A stretch of DNA of 64,000 nucleotides from Candidatus Paceibacter sp. Its GTDB lineage: Bacteria; Patescibacteriota; Minisyncoccia; Phycocordibacterales; GCA-2747955. Where the stretch lies: contig JABACC010000007.1 of the NCBI GenBank assembly GCA_014237915.1, positions 1,446 through 65,445 of the forward strand. The letters run 5' to 3'. Positions 2,421 to 50,634 of the stretch are shown here, piece after piece (position 1 is the first letter of the stretch; every line of letters starts with the position of its first letter). The position numbers were made by a program, and so were the translations under genes. The notes beneath the pieces were generated by a model that saw only the letters and a list, made by a program, of their open reading frames with translations, made no database searches and was not told where the DNA came from.

Positions 2421-2537
2421 AATTTTTTGGTTTTTGGTTTTCTTTTTTGGCGGATTTTGCGAAGCAAAATCCGCCAAAAAATTTAATTATTTTTTAAATT
2501 TAAAAAATTTTAATACTTTGTGTTAAAATGTTGAACA

Positions 2538-4034
2538 ATGTCAAAAAACTCTACACAAGAAAATATAAAAAAAAGATCTCCCGTTGTTTCTGTTATGGGG
2601 CATGTTGATCACGGAAAATCTTCTCTTTTAGACTACATAAGAAAAACTAATATTGTAGAAAAAGAAGCAGGAGGAATTACTCAGCATTTATCAGCCTATG
2701 AAGTGGAGCACAAAGGAGAGAAAATAACTTTTTTAGATATTCCGGGGCACGAAGCTTTTTCTGCGGTTAAAAAAAGAGGAGCTTCTGTGGCCGACCTTGT
2801 TATTTTAATTGTTTCAGCCACTGAAGGAGTAAAAGACCAAACCGTTTCAGCTATTGAATTTATTAAAGAATCAAAAACTCCGTTTTTGGTAGCTTTTACA
2901 AAAATCGATCTTCCCAACAAAGATGTAGAAAAAGCCAAACTTTCACTTTTAGAAAAAGAAGTTTATTTAGAGGGAATGGGAGGAGACGTTTCTTATACAG
3001 AAATTTCTTCAAAAACAGGAGAAGGAATTGAAAATCTTTTAGAACTTGTTTCTTTAAAAGCTGAAGTTGAAAATTTTACGGCAAATTTTGAAAAAAAAGC
3101 CACAGGTTTTGTTTTAGAAGCTCACAAAAATCCAAAAGTTGGAATTTCAGCCACACTTTTAATAAAAGAAGGAACTTTAAATGTGGGAGATTATATTGTT
3201 TCTGGAAAAACTTTTGTTTCTGTAAAAAGAATTGAAAATTCTTTAAACGAATCGATAAAAGAAGCCTCTGCTTCTTCACCTGTTTTAATTTCTGGTTTTC
3301 AAGAATTACCGCTTTCAGGCTCAGAGTTTTATACTTTTTCTTCAAAAAAAGAAGCAGAAAAATTTATTGAAGAAATGGAAGAAGCCGGCCTTGTGGAAGA
3401 GGCAGAAGATTTTTCATTAAAAAATTCCAAAAACTTTTTCCCGCTCATTGTAAAAGCAGATGTTTCAGGATCTTTGGAAGCTATAAAATCAGAGCTTAAA
3501 AAAATTACCGACGAAAGATCAGAATTTAAAATAATAGAAGAAGGCACGGGAAATATTTCAGAGTCGGACTTAAAAAAAGCAGGAGCAAAATCTTCTGTTA
3601 CGGTGGTTGGCTTTGGAGTAAAAGAAGAATCTTCAGCAAAAAATTTAGCTGAGATATTTGATATAGAAATTAAAACTTTTAATATAATTTATGAGCTTTC
3701 AGAATATTTACAAAAAAGGTTAAAAGAGCTCACACCAAAAGAAAGAATTGAAAAAGAGGTTGCAAAAGCTAAAGTTTTAAAAATTTTTTCTTGGGACAAA
3801 AAAGGCGGAGTTGTGGGAGGAGAAGTTCTTTCTGGTGAAATTTTTAGCGATTCTTTTTTCAAAATAGAAAGAAGAGGGCAGTTTTTAGAAACTGGAAAAA
3901 TTTTACAATTACAATCTGGAAAGAAAAAAGCAAGCTCCGTAAAAGAAGGAGTGCAGTTTGGGGTGGAAATTTTAACAAAAAACGAGTTAATGGAAGGAGA
4001 TATTTTAGTGGCTTTTAAAATTGAAGAAATTTAA
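2538..4034 (+). CDS. infB: Translation initiation factor IF-2 (compact form lacking the long N-terminal domain)
   Basis: G-domain motifs VVSVMGHVDHGKSSLLD, DIPGHEAF and TKID near the N-terminus; C-terminal IF2 beta-barrel domains. Sits in the conserved pnp/infB/rbfA neighbourhood. Confidence 0.88.
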   Translation: MSKNSTQENIKKRSPVVSVMGHVDHGKSSLLDYIRKTNIVEKEAGGITQHLSAYEVEHKGEKITFLDIPGHEAFSAVKKRGASVADLVILIVSATEGVKDQTVSAIEFIKESKTPFLVAFTKIDLPNKDVEKAKLSLLEKEVYLEGMGGDVSYTEISSKTGEGIENLLELVSLKAEVENFTANFEKKATGFVLEAHKNPKVGISATLLIKEGTLNVGDYIVSGKTFVSVKRIENSLNESIKEASASSPVLISGFQELPLSGSEFYTFSSKKEAEKFIEEMEEAGLVEEAEDFSLKNSKNFFPLIVKADVSGSLEAIKSELKKITDERSEFKIIEEGTGNISESDLKKAGAKSSVTVVGFGVKEESSAKNLAEIFDIEIKTFNIIYELSEYLQKRLKELTPKERIEKEVAKAKVLKIFSWDKKGGVVGGEVLSGEIFSDSFFKIERRGQFLETGKILQLQSGKKKASSVKEGVQFGVEILTKNELMEGDILVAFKIEEI

Positions 4035-4037
4035 TTT

Positions 4038-4361
4038 ATGTCAGAAAGGTTAGATAAAGTTTCAAAACTTATTAAAAAAAATGCTGGGGATTTTATCTCT
4101 CAGCAAAACAATAAAACGAGTCTTATTAGCATTACTAGAGTTGATGTTTCAAAGGATTTAAAAAATTCAAATATTTATATTTCTGTTTTTCCTGAAAAAT
4201 CAGAAGAGTCTGCTCTAAATTTTTTAAAAAGAAAAAGAAAAGATTTTAGAGATTTTTTTAAAGCTAATTCAAAAATTAGAATTGTGCCATTTTTTGATTT
4301 TGTTGTAGATGCGGGAGAGAAAAACAGAATTTTAGTGGAAGAGATTTTAAGAAAAAAATAA
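4038..4361 (+). CDS. rbfA: Ribosome-binding factor A
   Basis: 107 aa. Starts 3 nt after the infB stop. RbfA-like pattern (V..V..S.DL..A..Y.S) and classic infB-rbfA synteny. Confidence 0.65.
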   Translation: MSERLDKVSKLIKKNAGDFISQQNNKTSLISITRVDVSKDLKNSNIYISVFPEKSEESALNFLKRKRKDFRDFFKANSKIRIVPFFDFVVDAGEKNRILVEEILRKK

Positions 4362-4426
4362 AAAAGCCCTAAAAGGCTTTTGCGAAGGCTCGAGGCAAAA
4401 CCCTCGAGCCAAAAATATTTTTTGAT

Positions 4427-4609
4427 TTAGGTTTTGAAAAAATATTGTTCAAGTTTTTTCAGAGCCTTCCAGAACGTCACTACAGCAAGGGTCCCAATAA
4501 TAACCCAGAACCATATAATAGACGCAAAGTGGGAAAAAGTTATCCCCACTAATAATTGAAACTCGGAACTAAAAAATGAAAATATTTCCATTTTTTTATC
4601 CTTTCTCAC
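4427..4609 (-). CDS. Small hydrophobic protein (hypothetical)
   Basis: 60-aa ORF with one or two predicted TM helices. No recognisable motif. Confidence 0.2.
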   Translation of the reverse strand: MRKDKKMEIFSFFSSEFQLLVGITFSHFASIIWFWVIIGTLAVVTFWKALKKLEQYFFKT

Positions 4610-4727: not shown

Positions 4728-4770
4728 TTTTTTGAGTGGATTTTGCTGAAGGCAAAATCCACTCAAAAAA
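4728..4770. terminator. Palindromic GNRA-loop hairpin (family member 2), probable bidirectional terminator
   Basis: tttttttgagtggattttgc-tgaag-gcaaaatccactcaaaaaa. T-run upstream and A-run downstream make the whole element palindromic. Confidence 0.45.
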
Positions 4771-4783: not shown

Positions 4784-5047
4784 TTAATTTTTAAGAGAGT
4801 TTAAAAGATTTAATTTTTCTTCCCTTTCAAGATCTGTTAAAGTTTTTTTTTCTTCTTGTAAATTTTCCAAAACTTCTTTTTTTTCTGTTTTTGTTTTTGG
4901 AATAAAAACTTCTTCTGTTTTTTCAACCACCCCTTCGACAATTTCTTTTTTTTCTACCTTTAAATCAAAATTAATAAAAAAAATAGAAAGAACTATTAAT
5001 ATAAAAAGTATTATAAAAAAAATATAAATTATTTTTCTTCTATGCAT
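4784..5047 (-). CDS. Hypothetical membrane-anchored protein (C-terminal coiled-coil, charged)
   Basis: 87 aa. N-terminal TM helix followed by a K/E-rich segment. Confidence 0.3.
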   Translation of the reverse strand: MHRRKIIYIFFIILFILIVLSIFFINFDLKVEKKEIVEGVVEKTEEVFIPKTKTEKKEVLENLQEEKKTLTDLEREEKLNLLNSLKN

Positions 5048-8187: not shown

Positions 8188-8288
8188 AAATAAAATTATT
8201 TTAAAAAAAATAAAAAATTTTTTTAGAAAATTTTTAATAAAAACAAACAAAATACTTATAAAGTATTTTTTTTGTTATAATATTTTTA

Positions 8289-9821
8289 ATGAGCTTTTCA
8301 AAAATTTATTCAACAGGTTTTTCTTCTCTAAAATCTTTTATTATTGAAATTGAAACAGATATTTCAAAAAAAGGTTTACCTTCTTTTAAAATTGTTGGCC
8401 TTGCCGACAAAGCTGTGGAAGAGTCAAGAGAAAGAGTTTTAACCGCGTTAAAAAATATCGGGTATCCAGAATTTAAAAGATGGAAAATTGTAACCTCCTT
8501 TTCTCCGGCCGATTTGAAAAAAGAAGGCCCTATTTTTGATTTAGGGATAGCAGTTTCTCTTTTAATGTCTGGAGAAGAAATAGACTTTTTAAATGAAGGA
8601 AAAATTTTCTTAGGCGAACTTTCTCTTGACGGAAGGGTAAAAAAAATCAAAGGTGTTTTGCCGATGATACGAGAAGCTAAAAAAAGAAATTTTACATCTA
8701 TTTATTTGCCAGAAAAAAATGCTCTTGAAGCTTCTTATGTTGAAGGAGTTAAAATTTTTCCTGTAAAAAATCTTAAAGAGCTTTTAGAACATTTAAATCA
8801 AGAAAAAAAAGAAAAAAAAGATATCAAAAAAATTATTTTTCCTTATAAAAAAAATGAAAATGAAAAAGAAGAAGAGAAAAGTTTTTCTTCCGAAGTTGAT
8901 TTTGAAGATATTAAGGGAAATGAATTTTCGAAAAGGGCAATTTTAATTGCAGCTTCGGGCGGACACAATCTTTCAATGTATGGAAGAGCGGGGGTGGGAA
9001 AAACAATGATGGCAAGAGCAATGTGTGGAATTTTACCAGAGCTTTCAAATGAAGAAGCTTTGGAGGTTTCTGAAATTTATTCTGTTTCTGGTCTTTTGGA
9101 GAAAAATATTATTAAAACTCCTCCTTTTTTTGCCCCGCACCATACTTCTTCTTATGTTTCGATTATTGGCGGCGGGGCTGACTTAAAACCCGGAGCAGTG
9201 ACACTTGCCCACAGAGGAATTTTGTTTATGGATGAGTTTCCAGAATTTGATAGAAGAGTTTTAGAGTCACTCAGAGAGCCTTTGGAAGACGGTTTTGTAA
9301 ATATTTCAAGAGCAAAAGGAAGTGTTTGTTTTCCAGCAAATTTTATTTTAGTAACTGCCTTTAATCCGCCAAGTGAAGTTTCAAGAGGGCAATATATAAA
9401 ACCATCAGAAATTGCAAAATTTCAGAAAAAAATTTCTGGCCCAATAATGGACAGAATTGATCTTTGGTGTGAGGTGGAAAAAGTTTCAGAGGAAAAACTT
9501 AGAGAAAACAAAAAAGGAGAAAACTCAAAAAATATAAAAGAAAAAGTAAAAAAAGCTAGAAAAATTCAAGAAAAAAGATTTGGAAAAACTGGGAAAACAA
9601 ACGCAAGCGCTAAACCAAAAGAAATTCAAGAAAATTTTTTTATAACAGAAAAATCCTACGAGCTTTTGGATGAGGCTTCAAAAAAAATGGATTTTTCATC
9701 AAGGGTTTATCACAAAATATTAAAAATAGCACGAACTTTGGCAGATCTTGAAGAGAAAAAAAACGTTGAAGAAAAACATATTTTAGAAGCTTTACAGTTT
9801 AGACCAAAAGAAATAATTTAA
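8289..9821 (+). CDS. comM: Mg-chelatase-like AAA+ ATPase, YifB/ComM family
   Basis: N-terminal Lon-protease-like domain (FKIVGLADKAVEESRERV). Walker A GRAGVGKTMMARA, Walker B ILFMDEFPEF. C-terminal Mg-chelatase subunit ChlI-type helical domain. Confidence 0.85.
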   Translation: MSFSKIYSTGFSSLKSFIIEIETDISKKGLPSFKIVGLADKAVEESRERVLTALKNIGYPEFKRWKIVTSFSPADLKKEGPIFDLGIAVSLLMSGEEIDFLNEGKIFLGELSLDGRVKKIKGVLPMIREAKKRNFTSIYLPEKNALEASYVEGVKIFPVKNLKELLEHLNQEKKEKKDIKKIIFPYKKNENEKEEEKSFSSEVDFEDIKGNEFSKRAILIAASGGHNLSMYGRAGVGKTMMARAMCGILPELSNEEALEVSEIYSVSGLLEKNIIKTPPFFAPHHTSSYVSIIGGGADLKPGAVTLAHRGILFMDEFPEFDRRVLESLREPLEDGFVNISRAKGSVCFPANFILVTAFNPPSEVSRGQYIKPSEIAKFQKKISGPIMDRIDLWCEVEKVSEEKLRENKKGENSKNIKEKVKKARKIQEKRFGKTGKTNASAKPKEIQENFFITEKSYELLDEASKKMDFSSRVYHKILKIARTLADLEEKKNVEEKHILEALQFRPKEII

Positions 9822-9980
9822 TTTTTTCTTGCATTTTTTATTTTTTACATAGAATATAAAAAAATTTGATCTTTTTAAAAAAAACAAGAAAGTAATATTT
9901 TTTTCGACCCTATCCTGTAAAAATATTAAACTTTCTTGTTTAGACAAGAAATAGTTAAGTCCTTGTATTTCTTGTCAAAC

Positions 9981-10200: not shown

Positions 10201-10240
10201 TTTTAAAAAATTTTTCTTTATTTTTTGCTATAATTATTTT

Positions 10241-13200
10241 ATGGAAAAAGAATTTTTTGGTGAGAAAATAATAAAAACCCCCGAGCAAGATAAAGAATTT
10301 TTTAATACTAATTTAAATTTAAACTCTCAAGAAAAATATAATTCTTCTTTTGGAAACTTAAACGAAAAAAAAGCTGAAGCTGTTGCTCGCGATGTTTTGG
10401 AAAAATATCCAAAAGAGGCTATAAGTTTAGCTTCTCCTGAATATTTAAATAAAAAAAATAGTGCAGAAGCCATCGTTTTAAAACTTTCTCCAGATGAAGA
10501 TGATAAAAAAATGGAAGAATTTCTATCTTTAATTAATAAGGTTGGAATTTTAAACACAATTAATGCAATTGAAAAAACAGAATCTTTCCACATTAAAGAT
10601 GATTTTCACAGATTTTTAGTTCAGTATTTAAAATCTGGATATCAACCAAAAAAATTAAAAGAAAAAGAGCCGTTTTTTATTTCTTTAAAAAGAACTTTAT
10701 TTAAAATTCAAATCCCAAATTCTGCAGAAGAGGAAGATAAAAATAAAAATTTAAAAGAATTACTTTCTTCAATGGAACAATTTTTTTCTGGAATGTTTGC
10801 TGTTTCTTCTGCTGAGGAAGAAAATTATTTTTCTTTAGAAATCGCACTGGCGCAAAACTCAGACGAAGTTGATTTTTACTGTGCCATTCCAGACGGAAAA
10901 GAAAATATTTTTAAAAATCAGCTTTTAGCAGTTTTTCCAAAAGCCAAAATTTTAGAAGCCAGTGATGACTACAATATTTTCAATAAAAAAAAACTTGTAG
11001 CAGGGTCTTTTGCAAAATTAAAAAAAAATGATTTTTTTCCTCTAACAACTTATAAAAATTTAGACTATGATCCTTTAAATTTAATCATTCAAGCTTTTTC
11101 TAATTTAAAAAAAGAGGAAGGCGCTGCCATTCAGATTAATTTAAAAACTCCGAAAAAACCTTTTTCAGAAAAAGTTAGAAAAGCTATAAAACAAGTAGAC
11201 GAAGGAAAAGATGTAAACGAAATAGTCTCTAAAAAAACTTCTTTTTTAGTAGATTTAAATAATAAAATTTACAATACTTTTTTAGCCTCAAATAAAAATG
11301 AAGAAAAATCAGGCTCAAGTGAAGAAAAAAATTTTTTCTTAGAGCAATTAAAAGAAAAAAATTCTTCTTCTGTTTTTGAAGCCAATATAAATATTGTCTC
11401 GGCTGGAGAAACAGAGCGGGGAGCTTTGCAAATTCTTTCTGCCATTGAAGCTGCTTTTATGCAGTTTGAAAATCCTGCTGGGAACAGTCTTTTTTTTGAA
11501 AAAGTTGATGGAAAAAAATTACAAAAATTAATTAAAAATTTTACTTATAGAATTTTTGATAAAAAAAATATTTTAAATTTAAATATTTCTGAACTTTCAT
11601 CTTTTTTTCATTTTCCTAAAAAAACTTTGGAAGCAGGAGAAACCCTGTCTTCAGGAGCCAGTGTTTCTTCTGGAGTAGACTTAAAATTAAAGAAAATTTC
11701 AGAAGAAGCTTTGGAAGATTTTCAAGGCTCAAGTTTTTCTGCTCCAGAAAAAAAAGTAGAAAATGAAAAAGTAGAAGCAAAAAATTTTCCTTCGGAAAAT
11801 TTTTCATCTCAAAAAGACAATAATTTAAAAAATATTTCTGAAGATAATTTTCAAGAAAAAGAAAATGAACTTTCTTATAGTTTGGGGAAGGTTGATGATT
11901 TTGAAGAAAAAATTTCAAAAAAAAGTTTTGAGGAAGAGAAAAAAAGGAATGATAATTATGAAAAATTTCAAGAAAAAAAACCAGAAGAAAAAATAAACTT
12001 TGAGAGCGAAAAAATTGAAAAACCTGAAGAGGAATTTTTCCCACAAAAAAAATCAACAGGAAAAATTTTACTTGGAATAAACGAGCACCAAGGAGAAGAA
12101 ACAAAAATTTTTATGAATGAAATCGATAGAATGAGACACCTTTATGTTATTGGGCAAACAGGAACAGGAAAAACAACTCTTTTAAAAAATGCCATAATTC
12201 AAGATATTGAAAATGGAGAAGGGGTTTGCTTTATTGATCCTCACGGCTCAGATATTGAAGATATTTTGAAAAATATTCCGCCAGAACGAGCAAAAGATGT
12301 TGTTTATTTTGATCCATCTGATATGAAAAAAGTTGTTGGTTTAAATATGCTTGAATATGACAAAAATTTTCCCGAGCAAAAAACTTTTGTTGTTGACGAA
12401 ATGCTCTCTATTTTTAATAAACTTTTCGATATGAAAGCAACAGGAGGCCCAATGTTTGAACAATATTTTAGAAACGCTGTAATGCTCACCATTGAAGATC
12501 CAGAATCAGGCTCAACCCTTTTAGATGTTTCAAGGGTTTTGTCTGACTCTGAATTTAGAGAAATGAAATTATCAAAATCTAAAAATTTAATTACAAACCA
12601 ATTTTGGCAAAAAATTGCCCAACAGGCGCAAGGAGAGGCAAGCCTTGAAAATATTGTTCCCTACATAACTTCTAAATTTGATAATTTTTTATCAAATGAC
12701 ATTATGAGACCAATAATTGCTCAGCAAAAATCATCTTTAAATTTTAGAAAAATAATGGACGAGAAAAAAATTCTTCTTGTAAATTTATCAAAAGGAAGAT
12801 TGGGCGAGCTAAACGCTCATCTTTTAGGGCTTATTATTGTTGGAAAAATTTTAATGGCTGCTTTATCTAGGGTTGATTCTGATATAAAAAATCTCCCTCC
12901 TTTTTATCTTTATATAGACGAGTTTCAAAATATTACAACTGATTCAATTTCTCAAATTTTGTCTGAGGCAAGAAAATACAAACTTTCTTTAAATATTGCT
13001 CACCAATATATTTCTCAAATTGATGAAGATATAAAAAATGCTGTTTTTGGAAATGTGGGATCTTTGGCTGTTTTTCGTGTTGGCTCTGAGGATGCAGAAT
13101 TTTTGGAAAAACAATTTTTACCAACATTTTCTAGTAAAGATATTATTGGGCTTAAAAATCACAATGCTTATATAAAATTACTTGTTGGGGGAGAGCCAGT

Positions 13201-16122: not shown

Positions 16123-16202
16123 AATTAAATTTTTAAGTTATTTATATTTTCAGATTATAACAGAAAAAAAAGTAAATATTTAAATTTTTTGGATTTTTAT
16201 AT

Positions 16203-16247
16203 TTTTTTGTGGCGGATTTGCCGAAGGCAAATCCGCCACAAAAAAAT
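16203..16247. terminator. Palindromic GNRA-loop hairpin (family member 3)
   Basis: tttttttgtggcggatttgcc-gaag-gcaaatccgccacaaaaaaa, between divergent yidC (-) and pilB (+). Confidence 0.45.
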
Positions 16248-16289
16248 ATAAAAATAAAATTTTTTAAAAAAACATAGTATAATTAAATT

Positions 16290-23421: not shown

Positions 23422-23534
23422 ATTTAAAAAATTAAATTTAAATAAAAAAGCCCGAAGGGCTTTTTTATTTAAATAACTTAAGATAAATTTGACAGGCATG
23501 TTATAATTTTAAAATCCTAAAATTTAGGATAAAA

Positions 23535-30203: not shown

Positions 30204-30539
30204 ATGAATATTATAGAAAAAATAAATATAAAATTAATATTGTTAACAATATATATATATATATATATAAATTTAGGCGGAGCTTATTTGGTATTTCAAT
30301 TTTCTAGAAGTTCTATGTGGGGTCAAGATTTTGACAATATTTTAAGTCATTTATTAGAAGTTCTAAATACTCTTTTTAACTTAATGTATTCTAACTTTTT
30401 AATATTTTTATTATTATTTACTTTTTCTTTTTTTCTTTCCAAGTTTTTCTTAAAAAAAGAAAATAAATTATATTATATTTTATTCCACATTTTAGCCTTA
30501 CCTGCATCTTTTTTTGGGTATTTTATTTTAGTTGTATAG
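30204..30539 (+). CDS. Small polytopic membrane protein (cassette paralog A); immunity-protein-like position
   Basis: 111 aa. Conserved N-terminus MNIIEKINIKLILLTIYIYIYI and C-terminus YILFHILALPASFFGYFILVV shared with the next ORF; middle diverged. Contains (AT)10 at 30249-30269. Confidence 0.4.
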   Translation: MNIIEKINIKLILLTIYIYIYINLGGAYLVFQFSRSSMWGQDFDNILSHLLEVLNTLFNLMYSNFLIFLLLFTFSFFLSKFFLKKENKLYYILFHILALPASFFGYFILVV

Positions 30540-30540
30540 G

Positions 30541-30600
30541 TTAGTAAATGACTTAAAAGAAGAAATTGTTGAGTTTATTAATAATAATTAAATATGAATA
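30541..30600 (+). repeat. Junction repeat copy 2
   Basis: gttagtaaatgacttaaaagaagaaattgttgagtttattaataataattaaatatgaatattatag: duplicates the last roughly 50 nt of the giant CDS plus the start of the small gene. Confidence 0.8.
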
Positions 30601-30920
30601 TTATAGAAAAAATAAATATAAAATTAATATTATTAACAATATATATATATATATATATTAGTCTGGGGGGAGTTTTTGCAACAATGATATTTTCAGATTT
30701 TCGTATAGATGAATTAGTTACCGCTTTTTTTTATTCTTTTATTCCTTTTTTTATTTATATTTGGAGTAAACACTTTGTTATTTCTTTGATTTCGGTGATC
30801 ATCTCTTTTTCACTTGTTAAATTTAATATGATAAAAAAAATAAAAAAAATCTACATAATACTATTTCATATTTTAATTTTACCCCTTTCTTTTTTTGGGT
30901 ATTTTATTTTATTTGTATAG
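30594..30920 (+). CDS. Small polytopic membrane protein (cassette paralog B)
   Basis: 108 aa. Same conserved termini as paralog A with a different central segment. (AT)10 tract at 30639-30658. Confidence 0.4.
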   Translation: MNIIEKINIKLILLTIYIYIYISLGGVFATMIFSDFRIDELVTAFFYSFIPFFIYIWSKHFVISLISVIISFSLVKFNMIKKIKKIYIILFHILILPLSFFGYFILFV

Positions 30921-30980
30921 GTTAGTAAATGACTTAAAAGAAGAAATTGTTGAGTTTATAATTAATAATAATTAAATATG
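30921..30980 (+). repeat. Junction repeat copy 3 (with 5-nt insertion)
   Basis: gttagtaaatgacttaaaagaagaaattgttgagtttataattaataataattaaatATGaaaaatc… The ATG at 30976 opens a 21-codon frame that stops inside an (AT)6 tract, 1 nt out of frame with the 31010 ORF. Confidence 0.75.
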
Positions 30981-32236: not shown

Positions 32237-32770
32237 ATGAAAAAAGAAAAAATATTAGAAGAGCTTGCTTTAAAAATTATAAAAAAAGAAATAAGTAAAG
32301 ATGAAGTTGATATAGTGGCTCATTCAATGGGCGGGCTTGTGGCCAGATCTTTTATTCAATCTTCAAAACATTTAAACGAAGTGAGAAATTTTGTAATGGT
32401 AGGAACTCCAAACTCTGGCTCAGCCTCAACTTATCCTATCTGGGAAGGAGGGGATCCTATGGAAGTAGATATTTTACTAGGCGGAACTTTCGCTATCATT
32501 TTTTTTAACGAAGGAGATATATCGATGCTCAAATGGAATATTTTATATTTTTTGTTTACCATCTTTTGTGTTTTTCTATCTGTTAAAATGAAGAGTACTT
32601 CCATTTTATCTATTAATACATTATTTTTACTTTTATATATTTCTTATAATGTTAATGAATATTTTTCAAACTCCGTCAGCTTTCCTTTTTTGATCATCGT
32701 TTTAGGTTTTATTTTTTTACTTTTCGGATATCTTGCATTTCATTTTAATAAAAAATATATTAAAAACTAG
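32237..32770 (+). CDS. Orphan fragment: duplicated lipase active-site segment fused to a hydrophobic C-terminal region (possible pseudogene or recombination cassette)
   Basis: nt 32300-32460 are near-identical (one or two mismatches over about 160 nt) to nt 29401-29560 of the giant CDS. These encode EVDIVAHSMGGLVARSFIQSSKHLNEVRNFVMVGTPNSGSASTYPIWEGGDP. Flanks are unrelated; the C-terminal 100 aa are TM-rich. Confidence 0.35.
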   Translation: MKKEKILEELALKIIKKEISKDEVDIVAHSMGGLVARSFIQSSKHLNEVRNFVMVGTPNSGSASTYPIWEGGDPMEVDILLGGTFAIIFFNEGDISMLKWNILYFLFTIFCVFLSVKMKSTSILSINTLFLLLYISYNVNEYFSNSVSFPFLIIVLGFIFLLFGYLAFHFNKKYIKN

Positions 32771-34453: not shown

Positions 34454-34487
34454 GGCGGAAAAATTGGCGAAGCCAATTTTTCCGCCG
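34454..34487. terminator. Palindromic GNRA-loop hairpin (family member 4)
   Basis: ggcggaaaaattggc-gaag-ccaatttttccgcc between the DUF427 gene and tyrS. Confidence 0.4.
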
Positions 34488-34539
34488 CACTTATTTCTAT
34501 TTTAAAAATTTTATAAAAAAAATTTGCTATAATTTAAAA

Positions 34540-35760
34540 ATGTTAAAAAATTTTTTTGAAAAAAAAATAAAAATAAATACTGATGAGAAAAAAATTTCGG
34601 AAGTTGTTTCCAGAGGCGTTGTGAAAAATTTTCCCTCTGATGAATTTTTAAGAAAAAAACTTTCTTCAGGAGTTGCTCAAAAAATTTATTTAGGAATCGA
34701 TCCGACTGGCCCAACTTTGCATATGGGGCACGCCGTTTCTTTAAAAAAATTACAAGCTCTTCAAAAAATGGGCCATAAAATTATTTTATTGATTGGGGAT
34801 TTTACTGCCCGAATTGGTGATCCTGACAAAAAAAATGTCAGATCTCAACTTTCACATAAAGAGGTTTTAGAAAACTCTAAACTTTATAAAAAACAAGCAG
34901 AAGTTTTTTTGAATTTTTCTGGAAAAAATCCAGCTTCTTTAAAATATAATCACAATTGGCTTTCTAAATTAAATTTTGAAGATGTTATAAAACTTTGTTC
35001 GAAGGTGACAGTTCAAAGAATGCTTGATAGAGATATGTTTAGAAAAAGAATGACAGAAGAAAAACCAATTTATCTTCATGAATTTTTATATCCATTAATG
35101 CAAGGTTATGACGCAGTTGCAATGGATGTAGATGGAGAAATCGGAGGAAACGACCAAACTTTTAATATGCTCACAGGGCGAGATTTAATGAAAGAATATT
35201 CAGGAAAAGAAAAATTTGTTATTCCTATGAAACTTTTAGTTGATAATTCTGGTTCCAAAATGGGAAAAACAACAGGAAACATGCTTTCTTTTTTAGATTC
35301 AGCAGACGAAATGTTTGGAAAAATTATGTCTTGGAATGATGAAATGATTGTTTTAGGATTTGAGCTTTTAACAGACAAAAATTTAGAAGAAATTACAAAA
35401 AGATTAGAAAGTGGAGAAAACCCAAAAAATTTAAAAACAGAACTTGCTTTAGAAATTATTGAAATTTTTTACAACAAAGAAAAAGCACAAAAAGCACAGA
35501 AAAATTGGCAAGCTCAGTTTTCAGAAAGAGGAATTCCGGAAAATTTAGAAGAGATAGAAATTTTAAATGGCGAGAAAATTTTAGAGGTTTTGAAAAAAGC
35601 AGAATTTATTTTTTCCAACAAAGAAGGAAAAAGAAAAATTGACGAAAAGGCAGTGCAAATTGATGGAGAAAAAATTTTAGATTATGATTTTTCTTTTAAT
35701 AAAAACGGGGAAAAAATTTTAAAACTTGGAAAAAAAATGAAAAAAATTATTATTAAATAA
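34540..35760 (+). CDS. tyrS: Tyrosyl-tRNA synthetase
   Basis: Class I signatures GIDPTGPTLHMGHAV (HIGH) and KMGKT (KMSKS). C-terminal S4-like domain. 406 aa. Confidence 0.85.
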   Translation: MLKNFFEKKIKINTDEKKISEVVSRGVVKNFPSDEFLRKKLSSGVAQKIYLGIDPTGPTLHMGHAVSLKKLQALQKMGHKIILLIGDFTARIGDPDKKNVRSQLSHKEVLENSKLYKKQAEVFLNFSGKNPASLKYNHNWLSKLNFEDVIKLCSKVTVQRMLDRDMFRKRMTEEKPIYLHEFLYPLMQGYDAVAMDVDGEIGGNDQTFNMLTGRDLMKEYSGKEKFVIPMKLLVDNSGSKMGKTTGNMLSFLDSADEMFGKIMSWNDEMIVLGFELLTDKNLEEITKRLESGENPKNLKTELALEIIEIFYNKEKAQKAQKNWQAQFSERGIPENLEEIEILNGEKILEVLKKAEFIFSNKEGKRKIDEKAVQIDGEKILDYDFSFNKNGEKILKLGKKMKKIIIK

Positions 35761-36212: not shown

Positions 36213-36242
36213 CCTCAGAAATATTATAAATTAGAATAAAAA

Positions 36243-36287
36243 TTTTTTTGAGTGAAAATTGCTGAAAGCAATTTTCACTCAAAAAAA
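36243..36287. terminator. Palindromic GNRA-loop hairpin (family member 5)
   Basis: tttttttgagtgaaaattgc-tgaaag-caattttcactcaaaaaaa. A second canonical terminator (aaagcccgaaagggcttttt) lies at about 36348-36368. Confidence 0.45.
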
Positions 36288-36401
36288 TTTCCATTCTTTA
36301 CTTTTCTTGCTTTTTTTAAAAAAAAATATAAAATAGAGATATTAGAAAAGCCCGAAAGGGCTTTTTAAAATAAATTATTAAATATAAAATTAAATAAAAT
36401 T

Positions 36402-42063: not shown

Positions 42064-42120
42064 AATTAATTTTTTAAAAATAAAAACTCAATATAAAATA
42101 TTGAGTTTTTATTTTTTAAT

Positions 42121-42161
42121 TTTTTTTGATGGATTTTGCCTTCGGCAAAATCCATCAAAAA
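42121..42161. terminator. Palindromic hairpin (family member 6, UUCG-type loop)
   Basis: tttttttgatggattttgcc-ttcg-gcaaaatccatcaaaaaa, downstream of rpsR (+) and tRNA-Pro (-). Confidence 0.45.
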
Positions 42162-42186
42162 ACAAATAACTAAACTTTCAAATTTG

Positions 42187-42839: not shown

Positions 42840-44231
42840 ATGATTGAGGTTAATTCACTAAAAAAAGAATATGGTGAAAATTTTTTATTTAAGGAGCTAT
42901 CCTTTAATTTGCTTAAAAATGAAAACCTAGCTCTTGTTGGGAAAAACGGATCAGGTAAATCGACTTTATTTAAAATTTTAAATAGTGAAGATGAGGATTT
43001 TTCTGGAAATTTTAATATTTTGAGTAAAAATATTTTTTACGTAAATCAAGATATTAATATTTTTTTAAAAAAACAAAATATTGAGAATATTCTATTTTCA
43101 GACTTTTTAGAAAGAAATAGAAAAGTTTTTAAATTTTTTGATTTTAGTAATTTTAATCATAATTTAATTATTAAAAATTTAAGTTTAGGGCAAAAAACAA
43201 AACTTGCTCTAGCATACATATATTCAAAAGACCCAGATATTGTTTTTTTAGATGAGCCAACAAATAATTTAGATTTTTCAGCAATAGAAAATTTAAAAAA
43301 AAACATTAAAAAAAACACTAAATATATTAACTGGAGAGATGAAAAGAAAAAAGAATATTATAAAAAGATGAATATTTATAAAAATGAAATTGAAAAATCT
43401 AAAAAAATAAAAGAACAGGCAAGAAAGTTTCATCAAAACAGCATCAAAGGTGTTAAAAAAAAACTCATGGATGAAAAAGACCACCTTATAAGATCCTACA
43501 AAAAACAAGGTTTTGTAAATATAAAATCTAGATCAGGGTTATTGAAAAAAAAAACTTTAGAAATTAAGGAAAATGCTGAGAAACCAGAAAAAGAATTTGA
43601 GACAAAATTTTTTACTGAAAATGTTTCTTTTTTTGAAAATAAACCAACATTGAAAATCAAAAATGGAAATATCGGATATGAAAGAATACTGGTAGAAAAT
43701 ATTTTTATAGAAATTTTTTTTGGAGATAAGATAGCTATTGTTGGAAACAACGGAGAGGGGAAATCTACGCTTTTAAAAACAATAACAAGAGAAATCCCTA
43801 TTTTTTCAGGAGAAATAGAAGTTGGGAAGAACATAGTTTTTGGAAATTTGATCCAAGATAGATCTTTGGTAGGGGATGAAAATTTATATAATTTTTTTAA
43901 GTTAGAAACAGGAGAGAGTGATGGTATTATTTTTCATTACCTTAAAAAAGCTGGAATCTCAGAAGAAAAAATAAAAAAAGATATAAAATATTTATCCCAT
44001 GGGGAAAGAACAAGAGCTCTCCTTAGTTTTTTTTCCCTAAAGAAAGTAAACACTTTAATTTTAGACGAACCAACAAATCATTTGGATATTGACGGAATAT
44101 TCTCTCTTGAAGAATTTGTTAAAGATTTTAAAGGAAGTGTTATTTTAGTTTCCCATAATAAATATTTTTTAGAAAATTGTCAGATAGATAGGATTTATGA
44201 AGTAAAAGATAAGAAATTAAAACTAATTTAA
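42840..44231 (+). CDS. ABC-F family ATPase (tandem ABC domains, no TMD; translation-associated)
   Basis: Two sets of Walker A (LVGKNGSGKST / IVGNNGEGKST), signature (LSLGQKTK / LSHGERTR) and Walker B (VFLDEPTNNLD / LILDEPTNHLD), with a K/E-rich inter-domain linker. Confidence 0.75.
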   Translation: MIEVNSLKKEYGENFLFKELSFNLLKNENLALVGKNGSGKSTLFKILNSEDEDFSGNFNILSKNIFYVNQDINIFLKKQNIENILFSDFLERNRKVFKFFDFSNFNHNLIIKNLSLGQKTKLALAYIYSKDPDIVFLDEPTNNLDFSAIENLKKNIKKNTKYINWRDEKKKEYYKKMNIYKNEIEKSKKIKEQARKFHQNSIKGVKKKLMDEKDHLIRSYKKQGFVNIKSRSGLLKKKTLEIKENAEKPEKEFETKFFTENVSFFENKPTLKIKNGNIGYERILVENIFIEIFFGDKIAIVGNNGEGKSTLLKTITREIPIFSGEIEVGKNIVFGNLIQDRSLVGDENLYNFFKLETGESDGIIFHYLKKAGISEEKIKKDIKYLSHGERTRALLSFFSLKKVNTLILDEPTNHLDIDGIFSLEEFVKDFKGSVILVSHNKYFLENCQIDRIYEVKDKKLKLI

Positions 44232-44319: not shown

Positions 44320-44405
44320 GGAGGTGTGGCAGAGTGGTCGAATGCACCGGTCTTGAAAACCGGAGTGCGGCAACGTACCGGGGGTTCGAATCCCTCCACC
44401 TCCGC
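44320..44405 (+). tRNA. tRNA-Ser (anticodon UGA), long variable arm
   Basis: GGAGGTGTGGCAGAGTGGTCGAATGCACCGGTCTTGAAAACCGGAGTGCGGCAACGTACCGGGGGTTCGAATCCCTCCACCTCCG. Anticodon loop CTTGAAA, class II variable arm, T-loop GGTTCGAATCC. Followed by a hairpin terminator. Confidence 0.8.
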
Positions 44406-44460
44406 AACAAAATTTAAAATCTTGTTTTGAAAACTTGGAAAAACAAGTTTTTTTATTTTT

Positions 44461-44576
44461 GTAGGAAGTGTGAAGATTCGAAAAGTCGGGGCAGCGAGTA
44501 CTTAAATTTTTGAGCCACGAAGTGGTGATAAAAATTTTAGTATTGGCGCCGAATCCCTCCACCTCCGCAACAAAAT
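44461..44576 (+). pseudogene. Degenerate tandem copy of tRNA-Ser (5' half decayed, 3' end + terminator intact)
   Basis: 44550-44622 repeats 44386-44459 (T-arm 3' half + acceptor 3' strand + terminator) with 1 mismatch. The preceding roughly 90 nt (GTAGGAAGTGTGAAGATTCGAAAAG…) is a recognisable but mutated version of the tRNA 5' half and cannot form an acceptor stem. Confidence 0.4.
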
Positions 44577-44795
44577 TTAAAATCTTGTTTTAAAAACTTG
44601 GAAAAACAAGTTTTTTTATTTTTTAAAATTTAAATACAACTTCTGGACAACCCTAAGTTTCGTAACTTATTTTTTAAGAGGTTTTTTCCAGAATTAAAAA
44701 TTTGCTAAATAGAAAGCCAATCTTGTCTGTGGATAAGTCAAGAGTGTCAAATAAACTTTACTATTTTATTTAAAAAAATATGATATAATCTTTCT

Positions 44796-45422
44796 ATGCA
44801 CTTAACACAAAAAAAAATAATAGAGGTTATTTCAGAACAAACAGGTGCAGGAAAATTAAGTTTAAGAAAAATGGCAGATTTAATTGAAGTATCTGGAAAA
44901 CCACAAATAGTTAAACATCATTTAACCCAACTTGTTAAAAAAGGTTTTTTGAGGTTTACAGAAGCTGGGTACCAGCTCGTTAAAAACGAAAGTGGAAAAA
45001 GCACTTCTTCTTTAATAGCTATTCCGATAGTGGGAGCTACTAACTATGGCTCTCCCACGATCTTTGCAAAAGAAAATATAGAAAAATACTTAAGAGTCTC
45101 ATCCAAACTTCTTCCAAAAAAGAAAAAATTATTTGGATTAGTGGCAAATGGAGTCTCTATGAACAAAAGCCTTGTTAATGGAAAAAATATAGAAAATGGA
45201 GATTTTGTTATTGTAGACTCAGAAGCTAAAAATTTTAAAAATGAAGATATAGTGGTGGCAATTATAGACGGCATGGCAACTGCTAAAAAAATTATTAAAG
45301 AAAAAGCGAAAAAAAGAATTGTTTTACTTTCAGAATCAACGGATGATTTTTTACCTATTTATTTAGATGAATCTGATGATTTTATTATTAATGGAAAAGT
45401 TGTCGATGTTATTAAAAGATAA
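44796..45422 (+). CDS. lexA: LexA-like repressor (S24 peptidase family)
   Basis: N-terminal winged HTH. Ala-Gly-like cleavage region (VGATNYG). Catalytic Ser in GVSM and Lys in ATAKKI. 208 aa. Confidence 0.7.
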   Translation: MHLTQKKIIEVISEQTGAGKLSLRKMADLIEVSGKPQIVKHHLTQLVKKGFLRFTEAGYQLVKNESGKSTSSLIAIPIVGATNYGSPTIFAKENIEKYLRVSSKLLPKKKKLFGLVANGVSMNKSLVNGKNIENGDFVIVDSEAKNFKNEDIVVAIIDGMATAKKIIKEKAKKRIVLLSESTDDFLPIYLDESDDFIINGKVVDVIKR

Positions 45423-45515
45423 TTTATATCTATTTTTTGTTAAAAATGTTATAATATAAAAAATAAATAAAAAAATGAGCGGAGTGAACCTGTGGTGTGA
45501 TTAATTTAAGCACCG

Positions 45516-46406
45516 TTGGTATTCCGCTCATTTTTTATAATAATATGGTTTATGGTGAAAAAGAAAAGAAATAACAAGACAAAACAAGAATTAGTACGAA
45601 AAATGCAAAAAAAAGAATCGGATAAATATTTTTATGAAAATAAATATAAAAACTTAGGTTATAAAGAAATCCCGTATTCTAAAATAAAGGAAAAATTAAC
45701 AAAAAAAGAATTACATCTTTTTTTGTCTTTAAATTTAATAAAAAATCATTTTATAACCTTAGGGGACTTAAACATAAATTTGGAAAAATCATTAGAAGAC
45801 GAAAGCAAAGATGACGTCTTTGATGGATTAAAGAATGAAAGACAGCTTTTTATGCTCAGGTTGTTATCATCTCAAATTTATGAATCCCTAATATTTTTTA
45901 GAAATTATAAAAAGCAAATATGGACAATAAAAAATCTTGATGAAATAAAAGAAATTGGCGGAAGTAAGGATGCTACGAAATTTTTTCCGTTTATATTGAA
46001 AGTAATAGATATTAAAGACAGTGAATGGAAAGAAAGAAGTAATGAATTATTAGAAATAGATAAAACATTTGGAAATAAAGCTGTAAGGTTTTTTGAATTT
46101 ATATATCATTCAAGAAATGCTACTTTTCACTTTGGAAACAAACTTGATTGTGGATTTGAAAAGTTTTTTAATGATAAAAAAATAAAAAAAAAAGTAAATA
46201 ATCCTTGTTTTATTAAGATAGATGAAATGTCAGAGAAAAATCAACCTCTGTTTATAAATAATGTTTTTTATCATCAATATCATGAAAAATTTACTACAGA
46301 AAAAGAGCAAGAAAATTTAAATATGGAAATAAGTTTTTTTTTTATTTTAATGTCTAAGGTTTGTGATATTTTGATTGAAGAATTATTTAAGAAGATAGAT
46401 GGTTAA
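45516..46406 (+). CDS. Hypothetical protein
   Basis: 296-aa ORF. The start is uncertain: the first roughly 10 codons overlap a long hairpin, so the start may be the internal MVKKK. No motif recognised. Confidence 0.3.
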   Translation: MVFRSFFIIIWFMVKKKRNNKTKQELVRKMQKKESDKYFYENKYKNLGYKEIPYSKIKEKLTKKELHLFLSLNLIKNHFITLGDLNINLEKSLEDESKDDVFDGLKNERQLFMLRLLSSQIYESLIFFRNYKKQIWTIKNLDEIKEIGGSKDATKFFPFILKVIDIKDSEWKERSNELLEIDKTFGNKAVRFFEFIYHSRNATFHFGNKLDCGFEKFFNDKKIKKKVNNPCFIKIDEMSEKNQPLFINNVFYHQYHEKFTTEKEQENLNMEISFFFILMSKVCDILIEELFKKIDG

Positions 46407-46465
46407 CTTTTGTTTTAAAAATATGTATATAAATTTTTGAAATTAAATGTTATAATTTTTGGATT

Positions 46466-46945
46466 ATGGAAGAAAATACAAATAAAACAAAAAAAATAAT
46501 AATTACTGTTGTTGTAATTTTAGTTATTATCTTACTAATTTTTATTTTTTCAAAAGATAAAAATGAAGAAGTAGATAATAGTGAAATTTCAGAAACAGCT
46601 TCAGAAGTAAGTTCTGTTGAAGAAGTTGAGTCTGAAAAAGATATTGAAAATAATATTGCAGAAGAAGATATTTCTGAAATTTTTATAAATGAAAACGAAG
46701 ATGGAAACTTAGAAAATCTTTCAGAAGAAAAAAAACCAAGTCTTTCTTTTTCTTTTAAACAAAAATTTGAAGTTGTTTCAAATGAAAACAGAAAAATTTC
46801 TCTGCTACCGAAAATAAAACAAACTCTAATTTACGTAGATGAAAAACTTGAAAATTTAAAAGGAGTGGTTAAAGATGGAAATCCTATTTTGACAAAAATT
46901 GGCGGAATTTTAAATTCATTTGAAGAATTTATTTCTAGTATTTAA
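46466..46945 (+). CDS. Hypothetical membrane-anchored acidic protein
   Basis: 159 aa. One TM helix then an E/S-rich segment. Confidence 0.3.
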   Translation: MEENTNKTKKIIITVVVILVIILLIFIFSKDKNEEVDNSEISETASEVSSVEEVESEKDIENNIAEEDISEIFINENEDGNLENLSEEKKPSLSFSFKQKFEVVSNENRKISLLPKIKQTLIYVDEKLENLKGVVKDGNPILTKIGGILNSFEEFISSI

Positions 46946-48088: not shown

Positions 48089-48676
48089 ATGTTAATTCCT
48101 ACTGTAATAGAAAAAACAAATATGGGAGAAAGAGCCTATGATATTTACTCAAGGCTTTTAAAAGATAGAATTATTTTTGTCTATGGTCCGATTAGAGACG
48201 AAAGCATAAATTTAATAATTGCTCAACTGCTTTACCTAGAAGCAGAAGATTCTGAAAAAGATATAACTCTTTACGTAAACTCTCCTGGAGGATCTGTTAT
48301 GGCGGGACTTGCCCTTATAGACACCATGAATAATATAAAACCTGATATCTCCACCGTTTGTGTAGGAATGGCAGCATCTATGGGCGCTATGATACTCTCT
48401 TCCGGAGCTAAGGGAAAAAGATTTTCTCTGCCAAATTCTGAGGTTATGATTCATCAGCCTTGGGGTGGATTTGAGGGTCAAGTATCTGATTTAGAAATTA
48501 CAACAAAACAATTTGTAAAACATAAAAAATTGTTAACAGAAATGCTTTCAAAAAACACTAAACAAAAATTTTCTAAACTAGAAGAAGATATGGATAGGGA
48601 TTTTTGGCTCTCAGCTGACGAGGCTAAAAAATATGGAATTATCGACAAAGTCTTGGAAAATAAAAAGAAAAAATAA
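48089..48676 (+). CDS. clpP: ATP-dependent Clp protease proteolytic subunit
   Basis: Ser-His-Asp triad context: [18 protein letters not shown], …D. 195 aa. Confidence 0.95.
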
Positions 48677-48683
48677 TTATAAT

Positions 48684-48712
48684 TTATGCGGGCCCCTACG
48701 GTGCCCGCATTT
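48684..48712 (+). terminator. Intrinsic terminator after clpP
   Basis: atgcgggcccctacggtgcccgcattttt: GC-rich hairpin plus T-run. Confidence 0.55.
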
Positions 48713-48732
48713 TTAAAAAATAAAAAATAAAA

Positions 48733-49428
48733 ATGAAAAGAATCTTAATAAAATTATCAGGAGGAGCACTTGCAGAAGGTGAGGAAAAATTTTCACATTC
48801 TGTTTTGGAAAATACTGCAAAAAAAATTAAAAATATTCAAAAAAAAGGAGTTGAAATTGCAGTCGTTGTTGGCGGTGGAAATTTATTTAGAGGAAGGGAT
48901 TTGGAATCAGGAGATAAATTAAAAAGACCAACAGCTGATTATGTTGGAATGCTTGGAACTATTCAGAATGCCCTTATTGTGCGAGACTTTTTTATTTCAC
49001 AAGAAATTCCAACCATTGTTTCTTCTGCAATTTCAATGCCGCAAGTTTGCGAGCCATATATGCCAAGAAAAGTAACCAGTAATTTAAAAAAAGAAAGAGT
49101 TGTAATTTTAGCTGGAGGATTAGGACAGCCATATTTTTCTACAGATTCAGCAGCAGTCCAGAGAACTTTAGAGCTCGGTTGTGAAAAACTTATTTTAGCT
49201 AAAGACGGAGTTGATGGAGTTTATGATTCAGATCCAAAAGAAAACCCAGAGGCTAAAAAAATTGACAGATTAACTTGTTCTGAGATTTTAGAAAAAAATT
49301 TAAAAGTAGCTGACTCTTCAGCGGTTTCTCTTGCCAGAGAAAACGGACTTTCTATGAAAGTTGTTTCAATGGAAAATATTGAAGATTTTGATAATAAAAA
49401 TATTGGAACAGAAATTTTCCCAGAGTAA
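48733..49428 (+). CDS. pyrH: Uridylate (UMP) kinase
   Basis: ILIKLSGGAL… VVGGGNLFRG… amino-acid-kinase-fold motifs. 231 aa. Confidence 0.88.
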   Translation: MKRILIKLSGGALAEGEEKFSHSVLENTAKKIKNIQKKGVEIAVVVGGGNLFRGRDLESGDKLKRPTADYVGMLGTIQNALIVRDFFISQEIPTIVSSAISMPQVCEPYMPRKVTSNLKKERVVILAGGLGQPYFSTDSAAVQRTLELGCEKLILAKDGVDGVYDSDPKENPEAKKIDRLTCSEILEKNLKVADSSAVSLARENGLSMKVVSMENIEDFDNKNIGTEIFPE

Positions 49429-49441
49429 ATCACAATAAAAA

Positions 49442-50569
49442 ATGAAAAAAGAAAAATTTTCGTTAAAAGACCATCTTTTTAATAAGGAAAAAGTTATATA
49501 TTTTTCAAAACTTTTAAAAAAAGCTGACAAGAATTTTCCAGAGAAAAAATTTACAAAAGAAGTTTTAGAAAATTTTCCGCAATTGGAATTAAAAGAGAGG
49601 ATTTTTTTAATGAGGCAAAAACTCGAAGAGTTTTTGCCTCAAAAGTTTGAAAAATCAGCAGAAATTATTTTAAAAGCACTGCCTCCAGAATTTGATTCTA
49701 AAAAAACAGATGATGATTTTGGAGATTTTATTTTAGCTCCTTTTCAATATTTTGTAGCTAAAAATGGAAATAATAAAAAAGATTTAAAACTTTCACTAAA
49801 AACTCTTTCTGAAATTACAAAAAGATTTACGACAGAAGACGGAATAAGATATTTTATAAATTCATACCCAAAAGAAACTTTTTCTTTTTTACAAAAAATG
49901 TCTAAATCAAAAAACTATCACCAAAGAAGACTTTCCTCAGAAGGATTAAGACCAAATCTTCCTTGGTGTATTTCCATAAATTTTTCATACAAAAAAGGAG
50001 CTGAGATTTTGGATAATTTATATTTTGATAAAACTCGCTATGTTGTACGTTCAGTGGCAAATCATTTAAACGACATTTCAAAAATAGATTCAGATTTTGT
50101 TATAGAAAAATTAATTTTTTGGCAAAAAGAAAATAAGCAAAATGAAGATGAGTTCCGGTATTTAAAAACACATTCGCTAAGAACCCTCTTAAAAGATGGA
50201 AACGATAGCGCGCTTAATTTTTTAGGTTATAAGAAAAATATAAAAATAAAAAATTTTAAGTTTTTTTTGAAGAAAAAAAAAATATTTTTGGGAGAAAATT
50301 TGGATTTTCAAATTTCTTTTGAAAATTTTGAAAAAGAGAATATTTTATTAAATTATAAAATATATTTTTTGAAAAAAAATAGAAATTTAATTTCCAAAAC
50401 TTTTAGAATTAAAAAATTTTCTTCAGAAAAAAATAAAAAATATATTTTTGATAAAAAACATTCTTTTGCTGAAATTTCTACAAAAAAATATTATTCTGGT
50501 AAACACAAAATAGAAATTATTTTAAATGGAAAGATTTTAGCTTCAGAAAATTTTGATTTAAAGATTTAG
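49442..50569 (+). CDS. HEAT-repeat protein, possibly DNA alkylation repair enzyme (AlkD/AlkC-like)
   Basis: 375 aa, helical-repeat composition. The …RRLSSEGLRPNLPW…VRSVANHLNDISK… segment recalls the DNA_alkylation family. Weak, from memory. Confidence 0.3.
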   Translation: MKKEKFSLKDHLFNKEKVIYFSKLLKKADKNFPEKKFTKEVLENFPQLELKERIFLMRQKLEEFLPQKFEKSAEIILKALPPEFDSKKTDDDFGDFILAPFQYFVAKNGNNKKDLKLSLKTLSEITKRFTTEDGIRYFINSYPKETFSFLQKMSKSKNYHQRRLSSEGLRPNLPWCISINFSYKKGAEILDNLYFDKTRYVVRSVANHLNDISKIDSDFVIEKLIFWQKENKQNEDEFRYLKTHSLRTLLKDGNDSALNFLGYKKNIKIKNFKFFLKKKKIFLGENLDFQISFENFEKENILLNYKIYFLKKNRNLISKTFRIKKFSSEKNKKYIFDKKHSFAEISTKKYYSGKHKIEIILNGKILASENFDLKI

Positions 50570-50590
50570 TTTTTGAGGATTTTGTTTTTT

Positions 50591-50634
50591 GTTTTGGCGG
50601 AAAAATTGGCTCCGCCAATTTTTCCGCCAAAACC
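50591..50634. terminator. Palindromic hairpin (family member 7)
   Basis: ttttggcggaaaaattggc-tccg-ccaatttttccgccaaaa. The stem is almost identical to member 4 (34454-34487) but with a different loop. Confidence 0.45.

Follow-up and report, generated by a model that had tools for sequence, protein, structure and literature searches.

A 64-kb window (the whole stretch of DNA analysed here, taken from the 66-kb metagenome scaffold BUSC20-1_SAMN14422900 scaffold_178, the one scaffold covered) carries short hairpins between its genes that appear to form a lineage-specific family of dispersed, perfect-palindrome repeats, which would resemble repetitive extragenic palindromic (REP) sequences in lifestyle and fall outside the REP definition. 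A probability of roughly 0.5 is placed on this reading. The family comprises 8-9 copies in 66 kb, between 33 and 63 bp in length, and its layout is a T-run, a G-rich clamp (GGCGGA, GAGTGGA or GATGGA), an A/T run, GC, a cGAAg triloop and the mirror image of these parts. The elements, labelled A to G together with two added relatives, H and M (Table 1), occupy the short non-coding stretches that separate the end of a gene, or a canonical terminator, from the next promoter.

All seven hairpins reported in the initial annotation are present where it had placed them, and they are, as it stated, palindromic across their flanks as well. Specifically, each of A-G is a perfect hairpin whose stem, counted with its flanking runs, measures 15-30 bp, and the sole unpaired position is the loop-closing T/G of B. 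The window contains 11 perfect hairpins (stem of at least 12 bp with at least 4 GC pairs) compared with 0 in 100 first-order Markov simulations; RNA folding energies range from -24 to -42 kcal/mol on either strand, and pairing is strictly Watson-Crick, with G.U-type asymmetries nearly absent. The loops had been described as GNRA or UUCG tetraloops and turn out to be cGAAg/cGGAg triloops: 9 of the 11 hairpins have GAA, or else GGA, as a triloop, with C-G, U-A or U.G as the closing pair, the motifs in the window being GCGAAGC, CCGAAGG and GCGGAGC, and F and G carry the triloop on the minus strand and thus have the same loop type as the other members. The common layout with T-run and A-run likewise needs qualification, as it describes A, B, C, E and F, while D has no runs and G only GTTTT/AAAAC. 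In a scan with Rfam 15, the gathering score was reached only by three tRNAs and no hairpin was matched, with M returning merely spurious sub-threshold microRNA-hairpin matches.

The evidence that these hairpins are related lies in their arms. D and the reverse complement of G are identical at 32 of 33 positions, their 15-nt arms being the same and only the loop differing (GAA versus GGA), which agrees with the earlier observation that the fourth and seventh members have nearly identical stems and different loops. Between B and the reverse complement of F there are two differences, a symmetric 1-bp G/C indel and a single base next to the loop; the change that distinguishes A from C is likewise symmetric, and A, B and F have GGATTTTGC in common, a word found only in those three hairpins within the window. 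Clamps vary across the family (GGCGGA, GAGTGGA, GATGGA, GAGTGA), and both arms change together, so that perfect pairing is kept. In a permutation test that preserved each arm's strong/weak pattern and redrew base identity alone, five arm pairs were observed to share at least 9 nt where the simulations averaged 0.13, and the observed values were attained in none of the 5000 runs. Because arm similarity lies above all 5000 simulations, the hairpins were copied and not independently invented; judged by their sequences, the members are copies of one another, related by descent and present in either orientation. The arm test and the near-identity of the D/G and B/F pairs thereby sustain the proposal of a sequence-related family instead of independent terminators, with similarity within this genome higher than expected. 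The flanks give a different picture, since flank-only alignments reached p<0.05 in 5 of 56 pairs, barely above random intergenic background. As the flanks are not conserved beyond this background, the palindrome itself would be the unit, and a longer repeat unit was rejected on the same marginal similarity.

The polarity of the flanking runs sets the family apart from the terminators of the same genome. The hallmark of a bidirectional terminator is an upstream A-rich tract combined with a downstream U-tract (PMC12207403). In A, B, C, E and F, both strands instead show T6-7 5' of the stem and A6-7 3' of it, leaving 0-2 T in the 8 nt that follow the GC stem on either strand; G and M are roughly inverted too, and D has neither run. 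About seven canonical A-tract/stem/T-tract terminators, a set that the initial annotation had missed, also lie in the window, and on both strands the 8 nt that follow their stem include 6-7 T. The contrast is most direct between M and the canonical terminator N, which have the core GTGGAAAA(A)TTTTCCAC in common and opposite flanks (T6...A6 versus A6...T6). When the same classifier was applied to approximately 850 kb of other bacterial loci, which had been gathered for other purposes and therefore provide a rough baseline, it returned 50 canonical and 6 inverted hairpins, versus 6 and 5 in the window (Fisher p=0.013), so that inverted hairpins are about 11-fold denser in the window. Given T-runs ahead of the stem and A-runs behind it on both strands, the stem is followed by no U-tract in either direction, and U-tract-dependent termination in either direction seems unlikely. 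The suggestion that the elements act as bidirectional terminators is accordingly not borne out by the flanks, nor by the location of C between promoters and of A, F and M behind terminators.

Duplicated working intrinsic terminators, whether bidirectional or acting one way, in which the whole extended stem and the following T-rich sequence would act together, possibly with assistance from NusA/NusG, nonetheless deserve consideration as an unlikely alternative. Seven of eight elements follow the end of a gene or tRNA at a distance of 9-43 nt (for B, D, E, G and H this is the distance past a stop codon, and F lies 23 nt past tRNA-Pro), and the design and GAA loop are common to the canonical terminators I and J. 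However, C lies upstream of both flanking genes and therefore terminates neither, TGTTATAAT/TATAAT boxes separating it from the yidC and pilB start codons, and A, F and M are positioned 5-25 bp beyond the canonical terminators I, 42076 and 57354, respectively. A consensus scan scores A as terminator-like because its extended stem is followed by TTTAATTATT, and moderately T-rich sequence comes after E and D, but B, C, F and G have no T-tract in either direction past the extended stem, and 6-7 A, not U, stand directly 3' of the GC stem on both strands. The same genome makes canonical A-tract/stem/T-tract terminators, and its RNA polymerase is therefore not unusual. Weak or factor-assisted termination may take place at A, D, E and H.

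Table 1 Hairpins of the palindrome family, canonical terminators used for comparison and promoter-like boxes in the 64-kb window
Feature	Position	Architecture	Remark	Context
A	2443..2481	T6-GGCGGATTTTGC-GAA-GCAAAATCCGCC-A6	inverted polarity	15 bp past canonical terminator I; upstream of infB promoter
B	4728..4770	T6-GAGTGGATTTTGCT-GAA-GGCAAAATCCACTC-A6	inverted polarity	13 nt past stop of minus-strand gene 4784-5047
C	16193..16255	63-bp perfect palindrome, 30-bp stem, core T7-GTGGCGGATTTGCC-GAA	longest copy	between divergent yidC(-) and pilB(+); promoter-like -10 box on each side before gene
D	34454..34486	GGCGGAAAAATTGGC-GAA-GCCAATTTTTCCGCC	without flanking runs	43 nt past stop codon; upstream of tyrS
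E	36240..36290	AAAT7-GAGTGAAAATTGCT-GAA-AGCAATTTTCACTC-A7TTT	inverted polarity	27 nt past tadA stop
F	42122..42162	minus strand: T6-GATGGATTTTGCC-GAA-GGCAAAATCCATC-A6	inverted polarity	23 nt past tRNA-Pro(-) 3' end; 5 bp from canonical terminator 42076-42116
G	50591..50633	GTTTT-GGCGGAAAAATTGGC-TCC-GCCAATTTTTCCGCC-AAAAC	D flipped, loop GGA	21 nt past stop of alkC-like gene
H	56639..56680	GGCGGATATTGAAG...CTTTCAACATCCGCC, GGCGGA/TCCGCC clamp, one mismatch, ~11-nt loop	new relative	convergent gene junction, 9 nt past gene end; T-rich tail only on minus strand
M	57291..57329	GCGG-T6-GTGG-A5-TTTT-CCAC-A6-CCGC	new relative; inverted flank polarity	between rnpB terminator and tRNA-Gln
I	2369..2427	A-tract/28-bp stem/T-tract, GCGAAGC loop	canonical terminator, bidirectional	after pnp
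J	23436..23474	A6-GCCC-GAA-GGGC-T6	canonical terminator, bidirectional	
37657	37657		canonical terminator	
42076	42076..42116	AT-rich	canonical terminator, bidirectional	after rpsR
57098	57098		canonical terminator	
57354	57354		canonical terminator	
N	61686..61725	A6-GTGGAAAATTTTCCAC-T6	canonical terminator	between convergent pilC-like gene and rplT
TATAAT-type boxes (examples)	8279-8291, 10225-10243, 34523-34542, 50657-50676, 51153-51171, 53826-53845, 55366-55383, 62396-62414	TGnTATAAT/TATAAT		box ends 5-8 nt before ATG

The setting of the family is a compact genome. The window has a GC content of 27.4% and is approximately 92% coding, with intergenic DNA amounting to only about 5.4 kb. Its genes, among them a 615-aa polynucleotide phosphorylase, a 498-aa IF-2, YidC, PilB/PilC, a cluster resembling a type IV secretion system (T4SS) and secE-nusG-rplK, represent streamlined content, and the nearest relatives of its TyrS, which are 64-67% identical, are labelled Campbellbacteria or Patescibacteria. 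On the basis of the TyrS relatives, the host is best placed as a Campbellbacteria-like bacterium of the Candidate Phyla Radiation (CPR). The three nearest relatives available, with 56 kb of sequence between them, gave no family member and only one hairpin of inverted polarity; these relatives have long terminators with GAA/TTC triloops whose arms differ from those of the family. In a relative, Campbellbacteria GCA_002747955.1, two adjacent canonical terminators at 9886-9955 have the arm word AGCCCGCC in common and TTC loops. This relative thus shows within-genome similarity among terminator hairpins too, using different words.

Broader scans covered a genome collection and metagenomes, neither of which includes this organism. 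The pattern GGATTTTGC-N3-5-GCAAAATCC occurred at no fewer than 116 loci of the genome collection in many unrelated phyla, and was rejected as a marker of the family, the flanks being unrelated hairpins or repeats of other genomes. The pattern T6-GGCGGA...TCCGCC-A6 returned 18 metagenome loci that represent, once repeated sampling is taken into account, a handful of unrelated loci with 36-65% GC; element A was not recovered among them, and this candidate was set aside as well. The metagenome palindromes of this type are single conserved loci in unrelated organisms. One of them is a loopless 46-bp perfect palindrome, AATCT7GGCGGAAGGGGTACCCCTTCCGCCA7GATT, from an organism of about 37% GC, and another adjoins a canonical terminator in an organism of about 63% GC. 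For CPR/Patescibacteria, no published account was found that describes either small dispersed repeats or the architecture of terminators.

The proposed repeat family would work as follows. Small palindromes would spread to tolerated intergenic sites in the manner of REP-type elements, carried either by a trans-acting enzyme or by recombination/gene conversion. The copies are probably transcribed and would then fold into very stable, fully duplexed hairpins, and such RNA hairpins could block 3'-exonucleases, could be substrates of RNase III, or could weakly pause or insulate transcription, rather than bring about U-tract-dependent termination. On supercoiled or single-stranded DNA, the elements could additionally extrude as cruciforms or mini-hairpins. 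A REP-like or mobile lifestyle, as the initial annotation suggested, is plausible.

Several observations weigh against this proposal. Among the genes annotated in the window and in the 1.36 kb of scaffold before its start, there is no REP-associated tyrosine transposase (RAYT), Y1/HuH or DDE transposase, TnpB or integrase, and the elements have no target-site duplications or flanking direct repeats. No presence/absence polymorphism was detected, an independent Logan assembly being identical. A half-element hidden Markov model run over the window returned no solo arms and no decayed copies; such a lack could result from purifying selection or from recent spread, and would fit selection for function at least as well. 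Of the 9 elements that can be assigned, about 7 have GAA on the sense strand, a suggestive and not significant bias that hints at RNA-level selection. Additionally, B, D, E, G and H are the first or only hairpin past a stop codon, where a terminator would be expected, and 8-9 copies on a single scaffold make a small sample.

The ENA assembly departs from the window at one point only, a 1-bp indel that has no connection with the hairpins. It lies at about 43066 (about 17298 in the ENA assembly), splits a 463-aa ABC-ATPase gene (42840-44231) into two open reading frames (ORFs) in the ENA gene calls, and is probably a homopolymer-length difference of assembly or population. In the orthologous-locus comparison, for which the nearest TyrS is 67% identical, synteny was not kept.

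Two further explanations of the palindromes were considered. According to the first, which is quite unlikely, they constitute an undescribed class of untagged, self-symmetrising CPR palindromes that either act as DNA near leaderless-type promoters or represent a new non-autonomous mobile hairpin with its own enzyme. In the DNA-acting version, a cruciform or mini-hairpin upstream of promoters could serve as a supercoil sink, an insulator or a single-strand initiation site. According to the second, for which the prospects are similarly poor, the elements are DNA-level cis elements, namely cruciform supercoil sinks or insulators near promoters, sites for dimeric or hairpin-binding proteins, or hairpins for single-strand initiation or priming. 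AT-rich flanks are expected to ease cruciform extrusion with C-type kinetics, and under the twin-domain model negative supercoiling is expected to be highest between divergent promoters, which is where the longest copy, C, is found. The strict Watson-Crick pairing with almost no G.U-type asymmetry points the same way, as does the presence of a -10 box 27-43 nt downstream of the end of several members, but promoter distances are not fixed, and arm sequences, lengths and half-site spacing are too variable for one sequence-specific protein, no candidate for which was identified. The loops, too, cut both ways: the stability of cGNAg triloops is exceptional in DNA and lower in RNA, and cGAAg/cGGAg form the most stable DNA mini-hairpins, which primases and the phage N4 RNA polymerase use on single-stranded DNA (PMC13037366), but GAA triloops also occur in canonical terminators here and in the relatives, so that such a loop is no distinguishing mark of the family.

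REPs are described as small extragenic palindromes that form a sequence family and bear an unpaired GTAG or CGTC tag (PMC3733652). The present elements are small extragenic palindromes in a sequence family and lie mostly downstream of genes, and it might be supposed that they are true REPs mobilised by a RAYT (TnpA-REP), or miniature inverted-repeat transposable elements (MITEs) mobilised by a transposase that an insertion sequence encodes elsewhere in the genome. Both orientations occur, as for REPs generally (PMC3733652). Inspection of the flanks of all members, however, showed no GTAG/CTAC or CGTC/GACG next to a stem; no inverted dimers of family members exist in the 66 kb, and stems are perfect where those of REPs are imperfect. 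The anatomy of a MITE, with terminal inverted repeats around an internal region and a target-site duplication, is absent as well, each element being one hairpin without sub-terminal structure, and the 66 kb hold no Y1/HuH, DDE or TnpB gene. This explanation is accordingly rated as highly improbable.

It is scarcely credible that the elements are paired DNA uptake sequences for a type IV pilus/competence machinery, for although pilB, pilC and T4SS-like genes lie within the window and uptake sequences elsewhere are often inverted pairs at gene ends, as in terminators of Neisseria or Haemophilus, the clamp is variable and no arm-derived 8-12-mer is over-represented in the word counts of the window, on which this candidate was rejected. 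The commonest GC-containing words in the window are coding low-complexity words, and GGCGGA outside the hairpins occurs in coding sequence only, where it reads as Gly-Gly codons.

CPR/Patescibacteria genomes are extremely reduced, and copied palindromes take up part of the scarce intergenic sequence. A copied family would imply an active spreading mechanism or, alternatively, strong selection for a hairpin function other than canonical termination. Furthermore, a genome in which one hairpin design comes with flanks of either polarity, as in M and N, offers a natural experiment on the A-tract/U-tract arrangement, and terminator predictors that score just a stem plus nearby T will mis-annotate elements of this family.

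One further GAA-loop hairpin, K (49611-49641), has a perfect 14-bp stem and lies inside an AlkC-like DNA alkylation repair gene. Insertion into this gene was rejected, as the sequence aligns gap-free to conserved residues; it encodes the conserved MRQKLEEFLPQ and is built from mutually complementary codons (AGG/CCT, CAA/TTG, AAA/TTT, CTC/GAG). K is evidently a coincidence of complementary codons.

Many genes in the window have a TGnTATAAT/TATAAT box directly ahead of the ATG (Table 1), without space for a Shine-Dalgarno leader. This points to a separate promoter for most genes and to mRNAs that are leaderless or nearly so. Between E and secE (36291-36401), a promoter-like TTGCTT-N17-TATAAA is followed by the canonical terminator AAAAGCCCGAAAGGGCTTTTT (36342-36366); this segment just upstream of secE-nusG-rplK is a possible short leader or attenuator.

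Other features of the window include a bacterial class A RNase P RNA on the minus strand at 57412-57708 (89.2 bits, E=9e-28), a shortened, AT-rich, CPR-type molecule with the conserved GAGGAAAGTCCGAGC core, which the default scan missed because it scores below the Rfam gathering score of 100. A direct repeat of 74 bp (44387-44460 and 44550-44623; 98.6% identical, the second copy 163 bp downstream) consists of the last ~19 nt of tRNA-Ser(tga) and its downstream terminator and has the appearance of att sites left behind by an integration event; after it come a gene for an S24 (LexA-like) peptidase and ORFs without annotation (44796-46945). A small membrane-protein gene is tandemly duplicated (30204-30539 and 30594-30920; the products, of 111 and 108 aa, have the same N-terminus), and the duplication extends to its 3' flank (GTTAGTAAATGACTTAAAAGAAGAAATTGTTGAGTTTAT; 30540-30593 and 30921-30975). 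A 1316-aa surface protein (26251-30201) has no detectable homolog but itself among 5.8 billion sequences. Part of its lipase-like domain, a stretch of about 50 residues (EVDIVAHSMGGLVARSF...IWEGGDP), recurs identically in a 177-aa ORF (32237-32770), which is therefore a recent partial duplication of the upstream surface-protein gene.

Several known systems offer comparisons. The palindromes are like bidirectional intrinsic terminators in being GC-clamped stem-loops with homopolymer flanks, palindromic overall and, in several copies, located at gene 3' ends, and the canonical I, J, N, 42076 and 57354 of this genome share their GAA triloop; they differ in the reversed flanks, in the copy at divergent promoters and in the three copies that lie behind a terminator. 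TerR of plasmid pLS20 likewise has a perfect stem that is very long (18-30 bp) by the measure of ordinary terminators, but it keeps the A-tract upstream and the U-tract downstream, and it stands alone as one functional terminator instead of belonging to a repeat family (PMC10325885). With REPs and bacterial interspersed mosaic elements (BIMEs) they share GC-containing palindromes of 20-60 bp, a within-genome family in both orientations, extragenic positions that are mostly downstream of coding regions and between co-directional or convergent genes, and plausible transcription into stabilising RNA hairpins (PMC3733652). In contrast to these, the family has neither the GTAG/CGTC tag nor dimers, BIME clusters or a RAYT on the scaffold, and its perfect stems bear T-run/A-run extensions and a fixed cGAAg triloop. 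The DNA uptake sequence and uptake signal sequence (DUS/USS) pairs of Neisseria and Pasteurellaceae resemble it in that a word recurs in inverted pairs where genes end, in a bacterium that imports DNA naturally, whereas the family has no fixed over-represented word and no coding copies beyond codon usage. Finally, d(GCGAAGC)-type mini-hairpins and the hairpin promoters of phage N4 have identical loop motifs, more stable as DNA than as RNA, but they are individual functional sites with stems of 3-7 bp in the single-stranded DNA of phages or plasmids (PMC13037366), whereas here the same motif caps long chromosomal palindromes and ordinary terminators alike.

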